Below, piece by piece: positions 12,524 through 18,401 of a DNA stretch of 27,857 bases. A model generated the notes under the pieces. The model was not told where the DNA came from. It ran no database searches and was given only the letters and a program-made list of their open reading frames with translations. Where the stretch lies: the NCBI GenBank assembly GCA_023132105.1, contig JAGLYS010000191.1, positions 1-27,857 of the forward strand. The letters are read 5' to 3'. The DNA comes from a candidate division WOR-3 bacterium (GTDB taxonomy: Bacteria > Hydrothermota > 32-111 > QNBC01). Positions within the stretch are counted from its first letter, which is position 1. Each line of letters begins with the position of its first letter. Both the position numbers and the translations under genes were made by a program.

Positions 12524-12551
12524 TTGAATTTTTAAATAAAACAAGTATAAT
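12524..12551 (+). promoter_or_regulatory. Sigma70 promoter, probably giving a leaderless mRNA for queD
   Basis: TTGAAT (12524-12529), 16 nt spacer, TATAAT (12546-12551), 6 nt, ATG (12558); no SD. Confidence 0.65.
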
Positions 12552-12557
12552 GCAAAT

Positions 12558-12926
12558 ATGTTTATTATTAGAGTTGAAACACACTTTTCCGGAGCTCATT
12601 TTCTTAATGGATATATTGGTAAATGCTCGGATATGCATGGGCACAATTGGAAGGCTATTGTTGAGGTAAAAGGTAATAAGTTAAATAAATCCGGTATGCT
12701 TATTGATTTTAAAGAATTAAAGAAAATCGCAAATGAAATTTCAGACAAATTTGACCATAAAGTTTTAAATGAAATCGATTACTTCAACGATAAAAATCCT
12801 ACCGCTGAAAATATTGCAATATACTTTTCATTTGAACTTAAAAAAAGATTACCTGAATTGGAAATTAATCTTATACAGGTGTTTGAAACAGACGATTATG
12901 CTGCAACATATATTCCAGATAAATGA
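12558..12926 (+). CDS. queD: 6-carboxy-5,6,7,8-tetrahydropterin synthase
   Basis: FSGAHFL, CSDMHGHNW, DFKELK, DHKVLNE, NPTAENIA and VFET. Confidence 0.93.
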   Translation: MFIIRVETHFSGAHFLNGYIGKCSDMHGHNWKAIVEVKGNKLNKSGMLIDFKELKKIANEISDKFDHKVLNEIDYFNDKNPTAENIAIYFSFELKKRLPELEINLIQVFETDDYAATYIPDK

Positions 12927-13548
12927 AATTTTCGAATCGATTGAAGGAGAAACAACATTTTCAGGTTTTCCATCACTTTTTATCAGATTTACAGGATGTA
13001 ATCTGAGATGTAATTATTGCGATACGAAGTATGCATATAGTGAAGGTAAATTTTATTCAACCGAGCAAATAATAGAATTGATTAAAGGATCTAATAAAAA
13101 ATATATCATAATTACAGGTGGAGAACCGTTGATTCAAAAAGGGATAGAACATTTAATTATGGAAATTGGAAAGACAGATAAAATAATTATAATTGAAACA
13201 AATGGTTCAATGCCCATTGATAATATTCTTGGCAATTCGACAATAGTTATGATGGATATCAAAACCCCATCAAGCAATATGGCTAAGTTTAATAATTTGG
13301 AAAATATTAGAAAACTTCGTTCCTTTGACGAAGTAAAATTCACAATCTTAAACTATGATGATTTTATTTGGAGTGTCGATATTGTTAGAAATATAATAGA
13401 TAATAGATGTAAGGTAAATTTTTCGCCTGTTAACAATATACTCAAACCCTCACTCCTGGCAAAATGGATATTGGATTCAGATGAAAATATCAGATTGAAT
13501 CTCCAATTACACAAGATTATTTGGAAAAACAAAGAGCGAGGAATATGA
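12898..13548 (+). CDS. queE: 7-carboxy-7-deazaguanine synthase (radical SAM); start revised to 12898
   Basis: INEIFESIEGE, FIRFTGCNLRCNYCDTKY, ITGGEPL, ETNGS and LNLQLHK; operon context. Confidence 0.92.
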   Translation: MLQHIFQINEIFESIEGETTFSGFPSLFIRFTGCNLRCNYCDTKYAYSEGKFYSTEQIIELIKGSNKKYIIITGGEPLIQKGIEHLIMEIGKTDKIIIIETNGSMPIDNILGNSTIVMMDIKTPSSNMAKFNNLENIRKLRSFDEVKFTILNYDDFIWSVDIVRNIIDNRCKVNFSPVNNILKPSLLAKWILDSDENIRLNLQLHKIIWKNKERGI

Positions 13549-14315
13549 AAGATATACAAAACGAAAACGATTTACGCAAAATAGCCATAAACAAAGTTGG
13601 TGTTACAAGTGTAAAATATCCGATAACATTATTGGATAGAGATAGTTCATCACAACATACAATATGTGATATTGACCTCTGTGTTGACCTGCCTCATGAT
13701 TTCAGAGGTGCTCATATGAGCAGGTTTATTGAAATAATTCACAATTATAAGTCCTCAATAAACATCGATGCCATTCCGGATATACTTGAGAATGTTAGAA
13801 ATTCACTCAATGCGGAATCAGCACATATAAAAATCACATTCCCCTATTTTATGACAAAAAGTGCCCCCATTTCACATATTTCTTCATTAATGCCATATAA
13901 AGTTACATTTATTGGCACAAAAAACAGTAATATAACTGATATAGTTATAAATGTTGAAATACCCGTCACAACATTGTGTCCCTGTTCAAAAGAGATAAGC
14001 AATCACGGAGCTCATAATCAACGATCATTCCTTTCAATATCCGTTAGAACTAAAAAATTCATGTGGATTGAGGAATTGATAGAGATAGCTGAAAGTTGTG
14101 CAAGTTCTCAGATTTATCCTCTTTTAAAAAGAGAAGATGAAAAATATGTAACAGAACACGCATATAATAATCCGAGATTTGCAGAAGACATTGTAAGAGA
14201 AGCCGTATTGAAATTGAAAAAAAATGGAAAAATCACCTGGCTAAAGGTAGAATCATTAAATCTTGAAAGTATACACCTTCACAATACCTATGCTTGTGTT
14301 GAAATGGAAATATGA
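13545..14315 (+). CDS. folE2: GTP cyclohydrolase type IB; start revised to 13545
   Basis: INKVGV, GAHMSRF, TTLCPCSKEIS, GAHNQRS, NPRFAED and ESIHLHN; ATGA overlap with queE. Confidence 0.92.
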   Translation: MKDIQNENDLRKIAINKVGVTSVKYPITLLDRDSSSQHTICDIDLCVDLPHDFRGAHMSRFIEIIHNYKSSINIDAIPDILENVRNSLNAESAHIKITFPYFMTKSAPISHISSLMPYKVTFIGTKNSNITDIVINVEIPVTTLCPCSKEISNHGAHNQRSFLSISVRTKKFMWIEELIEIAESCASSQIYPLLKREDEKYVTEHAYNNPRFAEDIVREAVLKLKKNGKITWLKVESLNLESIHLHNTYACVEMEI

Positions 14316-15298
14316 ATAGAGTTATCGGTATAACATCTACGATACCTTCTGAAGTAATATATGCTGCCGGTTATAAATTATGTGATTTAAATAACCTCTA
14401 TATAAAATCCAGATTACCTATGGATTATTATGAAAAAGCTGAAATTGCAGGATTTCCCGGAACTTATTGTGGCTGGATAAAAGGTCTTTACAGTGCAGCT
14501 TTAGATAATGATATAAGAACAGTTATTGCTGTTACCGAAGGGGATTGTAGTAATACTCATGCTTTAATGGAACTATACACTTATGAGAATGTAAACACTA
14601 TACCTTTTGCATATCCGTTTATTCATGATAGAGAACATATATCTTTCGAAATTAGCAGTTTAATGAAAAGATTTAATGTTGTTAAAGTTGATTTAGATAT
14701 AGTACGAGAAAAATTCTATAAAATAAGGCAATTGCTTCATAAATTTGATGAAAATACATATTCCGAATCTAAAATATCAGGTAAGGAAAATCATATTTGG
14801 CTTATTTCTTCTAGCGATTTTAATGGAAATCCCGATAAATTTTATACTAATTTAAAAACAAGAATAAATGAAATAGACAAAAAAACCTCCATTTATAATG
14901 ATTACATAAGACTGGGATATGCGGGTGTTCCTCCTATATTCACCGATTTTTATGAGACAGTTGAGAATCTTGGAGGACATATCGTCTTCAATGAATTGCA
15001 AAGACAGTTTGCTATGCCATCATACCAAAAGGATATAGTGAGTCAATATCTTGATTATACATATCCGTACAGTATATTTTTAAGGATAGAAGATATTAAG
15101 ACAGAAATTAAAAAGAGGAAAATAAAAGGTCTTATTCACTATGTTCAATCATTCTGTTATAGAACCCTCGAAGATGTTATTTTACGAAAAGAATTAAATA
15201 TTCCTATCTTGACAATAGAAGGAGACAAACCAGAAAAAACAGGCGTTAGAACCAGAATTAGAATTGAAGCATTCATTGAAATGTTGAGGAAATTATGA
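14312..15298 (+). CDS. 2-hydroxyacyl-CoA dehydratase (HGD-D) family Fe-S protein, single subunit; substrate unknown
   Basis: IPSEVIYAAG N-terminus, Cys motifs TYCGW (C53), GDCSN (C79) and SFCYR (C282), IPILTIEGD, and a C-terminal TRIRIEAFIEML signature; adjacent to an activase. Confidence 0.85.
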   Translation: MNRVIGITSTIPSEVIYAAGYKLCDLNNLYIKSRLPMDYYEKAEIAGFPGTYCGWIKGLYSAALDNDIRTVIAVTEGDCSNTHALMELYTYENVNTIPFAYPFIHDREHISFEISSLMKRFNVVKVDLDIVREKFYKIRQLLHKFDENTYSESKISGKENHIWLISSSDFNGNPDKFYTNLKTRINEIDKKTSIYNDYIRLGYAGVPPIFTDFYETVENLGGHIVFNELQRQFAMPSYQKDIVSQYLDYTYPYSIFLRIEDIKTEIKKRKIKGLIHYVQSFCYRTLEDVILRKELNIPILTIEGDKPEKTGVRTRIRIEAFIEMLRKL

Positions 15299-16044
15299 AA
15301 GCTGGAATTGACATAGGCAGTAGAAGTATAAAAATCTATTTTGAAATTAACGGAGATCCTATTAGAAAGAAAATTGATACAATATCCTTTTTTAAAAACT
15401 ATTTATCTTCGGATAATGATATGTTAAAGATTGAAAATAATGATTTATTCAACGGATATCATCCGGATGAAATAATTGCTACCGGTTATGGAAAACTTGC
15501 AACTAACATTAAAACTACGAAAACAATCTCTGAAATAATAGCCCACGCAGTAGGAGCTATGGAATCTACGGGAGAAAAAAACTTTATTCTCGTTGATATC
15601 GGAGGACAGGATACCAAGGTAATAAAAATATCCGATTGTAATGTTGTTGATTTTCAAATGAATAACAAATGTGCGGCGGGAAGTGGCAGATACATTGAGA
15701 ATATGGCACAAATACTCGGTTTATCGATTAATGATATTTCAAGCAGGGTGAAAAATCCCATAAGAATCGATTCGACATGTACCACATTTGGGGAATCGGA
15801 AGTATTGGGAAAATTCTTTGAAGATAATAGCATTGAAAATATTGCAGCTGGTATTAATGAAGCTGTTGCCAGGAGATTGATTCCTATGATACGGAAATAT
15901 AATAGTAATACTATATTTGTTTCCGGTGGTGTGGCAAATAACAGTGCTGTAATCAGTTTTTTATCTACTGGTTTAAGTTTAGATGTAAAACGAATAGATT
16001 TTCCGGATTTTAACGGTGCATACGGGTGTTATAAATATGAATAA
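15295..16044 (+). CDS. ATP-dependent acyl-CoA dehydratase activase (HgdC/HadI; BadF/BcrA/BcrD ASKHA ATPase with a [4Fe-4S] cluster)
   Basis: GIDIGSRSIK, ATGYG, SEIIAHAVG, VDIGGQDTK, MNNKCAAGSG, STCTTFGESE, SGGVANN and GAYG. Confidence 0.92.
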   Translation: MKAGIDIGSRSIKIYFEINGDPIRKKIDTISFFKNYLSSDNDMLKIENNDLFNGYHPDEIIATGYGKLATNIKTTKTISEIIAHAVGAMESTGEKNFILVDIGGQDTKVIKISDCNVVDFQMNNKCAAGSGRYIENMAQILGLSINDISSRVKNPIRIDSTCTTFGESEVLGKFFEDNSIENIAAGINEAVARRLIPMIRKYNSNTIFVSGGVANNSAVISFLSTGLSLDVKRIDFPDFNGAYGCYKYE

Positions 16045-16717
16045 AAAAGCTGTTGTATTGCTAAGCGGTGGTCTGGATTCAACAACAACATTGGTTTATG
16101 CTTTGAATAAGGGCTATATTGTTTCTGCGATTACATTTGATTATGGTCAAAGACACAATATTGAAATTAAAAAGTCTATTTTAACAACAAAGAAATATAA
16201 TATTAAACATTTAATCTTTCCCATTCCATTGGATTTAATAGGGGGATCTGCTCTTACTGACAATATAGATGTTCCGGAACATAGCCTTGAAAATATTGGT
16301 AATGCTATCCCTATAACATATGTTCCTGCTCGAAATATAATTTTCCTGTCAATTGCTTCGGCATGGGCAGAAGTACAAAATATAGAAAATATATTTATCG
16401 GTGTTAATATGCTTGATTATAGCGGATATCCTGATTGTAGGAACATATTTATCAAATCTATGGAAAAATCTTTAACACTTGGAACAAAATTGGTAGATTT
16501 AAATAGAAAAATCAAGATTCATACACCACTTTCCGATTTAAAAAAATTTGAAATTATTCGACTCGGCATTGATCTTGATGTTGACTATTCGCTCACTTCA
16601 AGCTGTTATAATCCTGATAAGAAAGGAAGAGCTTGTGGAAAATGTGATAGTTGTAAACTTAGATTGCAAGGATTTAAAGCAATAGATATTTCTGATCCTG
16701 TTCCATATATAATATAA
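16037..16717 (+). CDS. queC: 7-cyano-7-deazaguanine synthase; start revised to 16037
   Basis: VLLSGGLDS, FDYGQRH, TYVPARN, GYPDCR, SCY and CGKCDSCKLR. Confidence 0.96.
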   Translation: MNKKAVVLLSGGLDSTTTLVYALNKGYIVSAITFDYGQRHNIEIKKSILTTKKYNIKHLIFPIPLDLIGGSALTDNIDVPEHSLENIGNAIPITYVPARNIIFLSIASAWAEVQNIENIFIGVNMLDYSGYPDCRNIFIKSMEKSLTLGTKLVDLNRKIKIHTPLSDLKKFEIIRLGIDLDVDYSLTSSCYNPDKKGRACGKCDSCKLRLQGFKAIDISDPVPYII

Positions 16718-18328: not shown

Positions 18329-18401
18329 GGGGCTATGGCGCAGCTGGGAGCGCGTTTGACTGGCAGTCAAAAGGCCACGGGTTCGAATCCCGTTAGCTCC
18401 A
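18329..18401 (+). tRNA. tRNA-Ala (anticodon GGC), CCA not encoded
   Basis: Acceptor stem GGGGCTA/TAGCTCC with the G3:U70 Ala identity pair, D arm GCGC/GCGC, anticodon stem TTTGA/TCAAA with loop CTGGCAG, T arm ACGGG-TTCGAAT-CCCGT, discriminator A. Confidence 0.97.

Follow-up and report, generated by a model that had tools for sequence, protein, structure and literature searches.

We propose that two adjacent genes in a 27,857-nt stretch of DNA from a candidate division WOR-3 bacterium (assembly GCA_023132105.1, contig JAGLYS010000191.1, analyzed over its full length and referred to below as the window) encode a two-component, ATP-driven [4Fe-4S] reductase, a putative preQ0-to-preQ1 enzyme that takes the place of QueF in the biosynthesis of queuosine. 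The components are an iron-sulfur (Fe-S) protein of the HGD-D family and an HgdC/HadI-type ATPase ("activase", archerase). We estimate the probability of this assignment, which is based on the operon context and on a distribution complementary to that of QueF, at roughly 0.7. With only slightly less confidence, we consider it probable that the widespread 3-Cys HGD-D family to which the protein belongs, together with its activase, represents a second, evolutionarily unrelated biological nitrile reductase, which would fill the QueF gap in many strict anaerobes. A first-pass annotation of the window, made from the sequence alone, had drawn attention to the HGD-D protein as a short, single-subunit form of the dehydratase family, but it missed the queuosine operon context.

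The HGD-D and activase genes are the fourth and fifth members of a six-gene cluster encoded on one strand, queD-queE-folE2-HGD-D-activase-queC (Table 1), in which all junctions overlap. At three of them (queE/folE2, folE2/HGD-D, and HGD-D/activase) the start codon of the downstream gene and the preceding stop codon share an ATGA, while the overlap is 29 nt between queD and queE and 8 nt between the activase gene and queC, counted from the likely ATG start of the latter. The reading frame of queE is open from position 12769; its likely start is an ATG inside the end of queD, and the matches to the QueE-type models TIGR04349 and TIGR03963 begin at residue 49-50 of the long open reading frame (ORF). 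A promoter-like site was seen only 5' of queD, and no internal terminator was found on the + strand of the cluster, save one weak 5-bp hairpin. Since the junctions overlap, the sole promoter-like site precedes queD, and the cluster lacks an internal terminator, the pair forms an integral part of the preQ0 (7-cyano-7-deazaguanine) operon. Profile searches of the window revealed no CoA-transferase or acyl-CoA dehydrogenase gene near the HGD-D gene, as the first-pass annotation had already remarked, and all its neighbors are que genes. The -10 hexamer of the promoter-like site ends 7 nt 5' of the queD ATG, so the mRNA of the que operon may have little or no leader and hence no space for a riboswitch; the Rfam search of the window at the gathering score detected none.

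The source genome is a metagenome-assembled genome (MAG) of 1.92 Mb, in 371 contigs and 87.8% complete. It contains tgt and queA on contig C255 and queH on contig C54 (QueH, 215 bits); neither QueG (profile search) nor YhhQ was found in the genome. Three queries, namely the models PF14489 and TIGR03139 and a QueF protein of another genome in the phylum, likewise found no QueF in this incomplete assembly. A hidden QueF can be rejected as far as the MAG allows: the weak matches to TIGR03139 and to the QueF protein are FolE, a T-fold homolog of QueF. With tgt, queA, and queH present and QueF not found, the step from preQ0 to preQ1 is the only one left without a gene. The genome has both FolE (GTP cyclohydrolase IA, contig C15:7520-7855) and the FolE2 (type IB) of the que operon. 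A DUF3307 gene lies upstream of queT and in translational coupling with it (contig C261:3300-5300, ORFs 454-1206 and 1206-1670), and its product may be a queuosine-salvage partner; an Rfam search 5' of queT gave no RNA family match.

Orthologs of the HGD-D protein are numerous. More than 4,700 database proteins were matched, the best 120 of which are all 324-342 aa long, score at least 360 bits, and retain ~50% identity across phyla, including Bacillota, Thermodesulfobacteriota, Nitrospirota, Planctomycetota, Latescibacterota, Coatesbacteria, Armatimonadota, and others. The carriers comprise at least 588 species-level genomes. In order to relate their distribution to that of the queuosine genes we used three samples. 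Sample A comprises 30 carriers from several phyla, reached through their loci, among them the closed genome of Sporomusa silvacetica and isolates of Heliophilum, Desulfofundulus, Ammonifex, Desulfosporosinus, and Desulfuromonas. Nearly all of these carriers possess the remainder of the pathway, i.e. QueA (29/30), a true QueC (28/30), and QueG or QueH (29/30; QueH in 24, QueG over the cut-off in 6), while QueF exceeds the cut-off in only two. In sample B, the 31 genomes of the source phylum, the ortholog is confined to the source family (three of the five genomes there). The seven genomes with QueC divide into three that have the ortholog without QueF and four that have QueF without the ortholog, with none having both; the 24 genomes lacking QueC all lack the ortholog, and QueA is found in 30 of the 31. 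QueC, the ortholog, and QueF are all missing from one 97%-complete genome of the source family, which represents the salvage-only state.

Sample C consists of 201 genomes drawn evenly from the phylum of Desulfuromonas, with the search set at a completeness of at least 90%. Here 60 genomes have only the ortholog, 98 only QueF, two have both, and 41 have neither; among the 135 genomes with QueC the corresponding numbers are 49, 68, one, and 17. The two genomes with both show unusually low QueF scores (62-64 bits), and the number expected by chance is ~31; the nominal Fisher P of ~5e-21 overstates the evidence, as the genomes are related. Complementarity between the ortholog and QueF recurs, however, in all three separate samples. 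The ortholog is a single-copy gene, with exactly one match in each of the 62 carriers of sample C. Among these carriers, the 12 without QueC (G069, G089, G103, G110, G125, G139, G145, G170, G176, G206, G231, and G236) account for most of the best-scoring orthologs, and many of them have a small genome (1.5-2.5 Mb).

Analysis of the gene neighborhoods reveals a link to que genes that is infrequent and recurs in different arrangements. The order HGDD-activase-queC is kept in two related genomes of the source family. Among 80 genome loci, que genes adjoin the ortholog in two, in the order queD-HcyMT-MTHFR-queE-HGDD; the genes for a homocysteine S-methyltransferase (HcyMT) and a methylenetetrahydrofolate reductase (MTHFR)-like protein lie between queD and queE, 5' of the ortholog, in an Armatimonadota MAG and a relative (L030 459-2232 and L081 1401-3153). 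In a metagenome scan of 80 loci centered on a member of Clostridia, 13 loci are linked to que genes, with the orders HGDD-activase-queC-queD-queE (folE2 is next in one locus), HGDD-activase-queD-queE-queC, and queD-queE-HGDD; QueF was not found in these 80 loci. Overall, que linkage is seen in 16 of 161 loci and in five gene orders, while the expectation for a random gene is ~0.5%. In a tree of the 161 orthologs the que-linked loci fall into three separate clades, one Clostridia-like, one containing Armatimonadota, and one formed by the long branch of the source protein itself. In the 80 genome loci the usual neighbors are murI, gerM, fumarase, rph, rdgB, metallophosphoesterase, and ksgA. In many Bacillota (e.g. 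L062, L071, L086, and L015 among L007-L086) the ortholog and the activase lie within a conserved gerM-murI-...-fumarase-rph-rdgB-metallophosphoesterase neighborhood, which may reflect co-regulation with tRNA or nucleotide housekeeping genes, or mere synteny.

A possible regulatory link comes from a short RNA element. Neither the window nor 40 loci yielded a canonical preQ1 riboswitch at the Rfam gathering score, and a looser riboswitch search of three whole loci gave none. A motif scan of all fetched loci yielded five copies of the pattern GACAGTTC...CCATCCTGTCTATAAnnAAAACTAGG, all on the coding strand (Table 1). Four of them lie 80-410 nt upstream of the ortholog in metagenomic loci (L108, L117, L137, and L176) and the fifth lies upstream of queD in L176, so that in this locus both transcription units carry the element. 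In searches of short regions Rfam aligns the element end to end with RF00522 (PreQ1-I), from which it diverges by a 4-nt insertion between the stem and the A-rich tail, and standard Rfam annotation may systematically miss such a divergent form. Two of the five copies had served to define the pattern, and the stretches searched were selected post hoc, so the riboswitch evidence is weak and counts as a lead only.

The HGD-D protein itself matches the Pfam profile HGD-D (PF06050) over its full length (110.4 bits vs. a cut-off of 28.4; residues 9-325 on profile positions 2-342). ORF translation and the genome search bore out the first-pass description of a 328-aa protein with cysteines at exactly 24, 53, 79, and 282, encoded by a single HGD-D gene beside the activase. 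The four-Cys count was thus exact, but it does not characterize the family: only Cys53, Cys79, and Cys282 are invariant in an alignment of 21 orthologs, and Cys24 is not conserved. The suggestion that the protein belongs to a subfamily of its own also holds. Orthologs score at least 360 bits, whereas the family profile reaches only 54 bits against the double-cubane protein DCCP and 28 against HadC, and the NCBIfam equivalogs are far missed (double_cubane NF040772, 43 bits vs. a cut-off of 350; HadC NF052456, 16.3 bits vs. 700); NCBIfam holds no model that fits the 3-Cys HGD-D family. Against solved structures the profile finds DCCP (6ENO/7YYL) with an E-value of 1.3e-13, HadC (3O3M_B) with 7.5e-6, and BzdN with 5e-4, and in length the protein falls 45-100 residues short of the solved subunits. 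Judged by these sequence comparisons it represents a distinct HGD-D subfamily, and grouping with HadB/HadC or with benzoyl-CoA reductase subunits was not seen.

The AlphaFold (AF2) model of the HGD-D protein has a mean predicted local distance difference test score (pLDDT) of 90.6 and a predicted template modeling score (pTM) of 0.88, and it shows a predicted two-domain HGD-D fold as in HadB/C, DCCP, and BzdN/O. Foldseek matches it to 6ENO, 3O3N_B, 9GAI_B, and 8S02_B with E-values of 5e-15 to 5e-13 and template modeling (TM) scores of 0.78-0.82. By manual count on the profile alignment, the invariant Cys53, Cys79, and Cys282 align with Cys114, Cys144, and Cys374 of DCCP, and the remaining Cys residues of DCCP fall in insertions or opposite the invariant Y251-P252-Y253. 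With three invariant cysteines, as against the six needed by the [8Fe-9S] cluster of DCCP, the family most likely carries one 3-Cys [4Fe-4S] cubane of the kind found in HadBC, which would leave one Fe free, as the first-pass annotation also supposed; the first-pass view that the protein is not of the DCCP type is in keeping with this. The invariant polar and aromatic residues N227, E228, Q230, R231, Y251, P252, and Y253, which stand in place of the extra Cys of DCCP, are speculative candidates for a nucleobase pocket. A partner subunit encoded elsewhere can be rejected, since no second HGD-D gene was found in the 87.8%-complete assembly, where the sole other, weak match is Lon protease, and to judge from its single catalytic gene the protein is probably a homodimer, as the first-pass annotation had supposed. 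Its proposal of a non-CoA substrate is favored by the que context, which makes preQ0 the likely substrate.

The second component, the activase, scores 160 bits with TIGR00241 (cut-off 125), and its best matches in the PDB are HadI (4EHT, 7.5e-35) and HgdC (1HUX, 1e-33), with which its KCAAG and STCT motifs and the cluster ligands C126 and C162 are aligned. It is the sole BcrAD_BadFG ATPase gene of the genome, and activase genes adjoin the HGD-D ortholog in 43 of the 80 genome loci and in 52 of the 80 loci of the metagenome scan.

Table 1. Coordinates of the que operon in the window and of the preQ1-I-like RNA elements in metagenomic loci.
Feature	Position	Strand	Evidence or remarks
Promoter-like site TTGAAT-16-TATAAT	12524..12551	+	Consensus scan only; within the 88-nt gap 5' of queD
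queD, 6-carboxytetrahydropterin synthase, 122 aa	12558..12926	+	Pfam PTPS 3.5e-38; TIGR03367 QueD 100 bits (cut-off 89)
queE, 7-carboxy-7-deazaguanine synthase, radical SAM	likely 12898..13548	+	TIGR04349/TIGR03963 QueE-type models
folE2, GTP cyclohydrolase IB	likely 13545..14315	+	Pfam GCHY-1 4.9e-91; NF010200 FolE2 265 bits (cut-off 215)
HGD-D-family Fe-S protein, 328 aa, candidate preQ0 reductase catalytic component	14312..15298	+	Pfam HGD-D; invariant Cys 53, 79, 282
HgdC/HadI-type ATPase (activase, archerase), 249 aa, cluster Cys 126 + 162	15295..16044	+	TIGR00241; PDB 4EHT, 1HUX
queC, 7-cyano-7-deazaguanine synthase	likely 16037..16717	+	Pfam QueC 1.2e-73; TIGR00364 199 bits (cut-off 150)
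preQ1-I-like element, L108	192-228	coding strand	Motif scan
preQ1-I-like element, L117	5554-5593	coding strand	Motif scan
preQ1-I-like element, L137	5846-5883	coding strand	Motif scan
preQ1-I-like elements, L176	5885-5921, 10474-10510	coding strand	Motif scan

Downstream of the que operon the window also contains a tRNA gene (68.9 bits, 18329-18401), located between a pyridine nucleotide-disulfide oxidoreductase gene and lipoprotein/TPR genes.

Several observations weigh against the preQ0 reductase assignment. The absence of queF from an 87.8%-complete MAG in 371 contigs is not proven, and the same genome encodes the QueT transporter, which makes salvage of a queuosine precursor possible. Four carriers also have QueF, 12 carriers in sample C lack QueC, and 17 genomes of that sample possess QueC and neither enzyme. 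About 90% of the loci have no que neighbor, and in Bacillota the ortholog sits in the housekeeping murI-...-rph-rdgB neighborhood described above. The RNA element scores only 22.3 and 17.6 bits against the Rfam gathering score of 39, and 40 other loci showed none. Moreover, QueF is not oxygen-dependent, which leaves the use of an ATP-costly substitute by anaerobes unexplained.

The alternative that survives best, and that we nevertheless consider unlikely, places the pair in 7-deazaguanine metabolism with some other role, e.g. making another deazaguanine derivative or else repairing or activating QueE, QueC, or QueH. The operon and the riboswitch-like element are compatible with it, as they show pathway association only, and so are the carriers without QueC. 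It does not account, however, for the fact that the QueF reaction is the sole step without an assigned gene in carriers that otherwise possess QueA, QueC, and QueG or QueH, nor for mutual exclusion specifically with QueF. The carriers without QueC fit preQ0 salvage equally well, since QueF itself occurs in 30 of the 66 genomes of sample C that lack QueC; these carriers may be preQ0 salvagers, or they may represent a lineage with a divergent QueC.

Still less probable, in our view, is that the pair serves strict anaerobes as a low-potential reductase with an unrelated housekeeping function on some small substrate, in which case both the que link and the anticorrelation with QueF would result from shared ecology and phylogeny. 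The scarcity of que neighbors, the usual company of murI, gerM, fumarase, rph, rdgB, and ksgA, and an ortholog tree that largely tracks organismal groups speak for this explanation. On the other hand, que linkage far exceeds the random expectation and arises in five gene orders and three clades, the gene is confined within the source phylum to genomes that have QueC and lack QueF, and the RNA element of L176 precedes both the ortholog and queD.

A third type of epoxyqueuosine reductase, in place of QueG or QueH, would agree with an Fe-S reductase in a queuosine context and with the failure to find QueG in the genome; we reject this role as very improbable, given the QueH of the source genome and the presence of QueH or QueG in 29 of 30 carriers. 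Least credible of all is a conventional function as a subunit of a 2-hydroxyacyl-CoA dehydratase or a benzoyl-CoA reductase, which the Pfam match and the database labels ("2-hydroxyacyl-CoA dehydratase", "BcrC/BadD/HgdB") would imply, in view of the single subunit gene per genome, the lack of a CoA-transferase or acyl-CoA context, the HadC equivalog score, and the shorter protein.

For the preQ0 reductase that we favor, the following mechanism can be envisaged. The flanking FolE2, QueD, QueE, and QueC would supply preQ0, whose nitrile would be converted to the aminomethyl group of preQ1, and TGT, QueA, and QueH would then complete queuosine in tRNA; the substrate could be either free-base preQ0 or preQ0 already inserted into tRNA. 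An activase dimer would be reduced by ferredoxin or flavodoxin and, upon ATP hydrolysis, would inject low-potential electrons one at a time into the 3-Cys [4Fe-4S] cluster of the probable homodimer. Binding of the nitrile is envisaged at the free Fe of the cluster or close to it, and four electrons and four protons would be delivered, in a net reductase mode as in DCCP and benzoyl-CoA reductase and not in an electron-recycling dehydratase cycle. By analogy, such chemistry is plausible, as the closest solved relative, DCCP, reduces small unsaturated molecules. The underlying chemistry of the archerase family has been described elsewhere (PMC7317905, PMC9351452).

A full-text search of a limited body of literature found no paper that links the 3-Cys HGD-D family to queuosine. 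To our knowledge, no enzyme other than QueF, which is under development as a biocatalyst, is dedicated to reducing nitriles to primary amines. Reactions so far known from the archerase family are ketyl-radical dehydrations, Birch-type ring reductions, and unphysiological reductions of small molecules. If our assignment is correct, the pair would catalyze a known reaction by means of an enzyme not described before, nitrile reduction would be new chemistry for archerases, and the DCCP-like, non-CoA branch of that family would gain its first physiological substrate. The QueF gap would be filled in ~30% of the sampled genomes of the Desulfuromonas phylum and in many Bacillota, as well as in Nitrospirota and others, and the systematic mis-annotation of thousands of proteins under the two database labels quoted above would be corrected. 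In a reconstruction of gut microbiomes QueF was among the signature genes that a complete pathway had to contain, and variants without it were classified as preQ1 salvagers (PMC6593275). Reconstructions that score anaerobes lacking QueF as preQ1 auxotrophs would have to be revised, with a bearing on models of how queuosine precursors are shared in anaerobic communities and in the gut.

Among characterized systems, the best match in both sequence and fold is DCCP with its reductase DCCP-R from Carboxydothermus hydrogenoformans (6ENO, 7YZM; E-value 1.3e-13, Foldseek TM 0.79-0.81 on the query), which likewise combines one catalytic gene with one HgdC-type ATPase. We know of no physiological substrate of DCCP. 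The DCCP/DCCP-R system carries out ATP-driven net reduction of small unsaturated molecules, is inhibited by cyanide, and holds its [8Fe-9S] cluster with six Cys of a 7-Cys motif (PMC7317905). Unlike DCCP, which is ~420 aa long, members of the family described here have ~325-338 aa and only three invariant cysteines, and lack the 7-Cys motif. HadBC and HgdAB share the fold (3O3M/3O3N chain B, TM 0.78-0.79), and their activators HadI and HgdC are the best PDB matches of the activase; in HadB and HadC alike, three Cys hold a [4Fe-4S] cluster of which one Fe is free (PMC7317905). These enzymes, however, are heterodimers of paralogous subunits that act on CoA thioesters, are encoded in fermentation clusters, and recycle their electron, whereas the present system has a single subunit gene outside any CoA context and would carry out a net four-electron reduction.

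The class I benzoyl-CoA reductases (BzdNOPQ, MbdONPQ, BcrABCD) resemble the proposed enzyme in the fold of the catalytic subunit (8S02_B and 9GAI_B, TM 0.78-0.82) and in net reduction by stoichiometric, ATP-coupled electron injection, with BzdN a weak match to the family profile (E-value 5e-4). They differ from it in having four subunits, two of the HGD-D type and two of the ATPase type, whereas the present genome has one gene per type, and in reducing an aromatic CoA ester. With QueF (EC 1.7.1.13), finally, the pair shares the proposed reaction, the association with queC, queD, and queE, and mutually exclusive occurrence. QueF acts through NADPH and a thioimide formed by a catalytic Cys, with neither a metal cluster nor ATP (PMC5372742, PMC13740343), whereas the HGD-D pair has a predicted Fe-S cluster, an ATPase, and presumably ferredoxin. 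QueF is a T-fold protein (PF14489) without homology to the HGD-D protein, and the two would be analogs, not members of one family.

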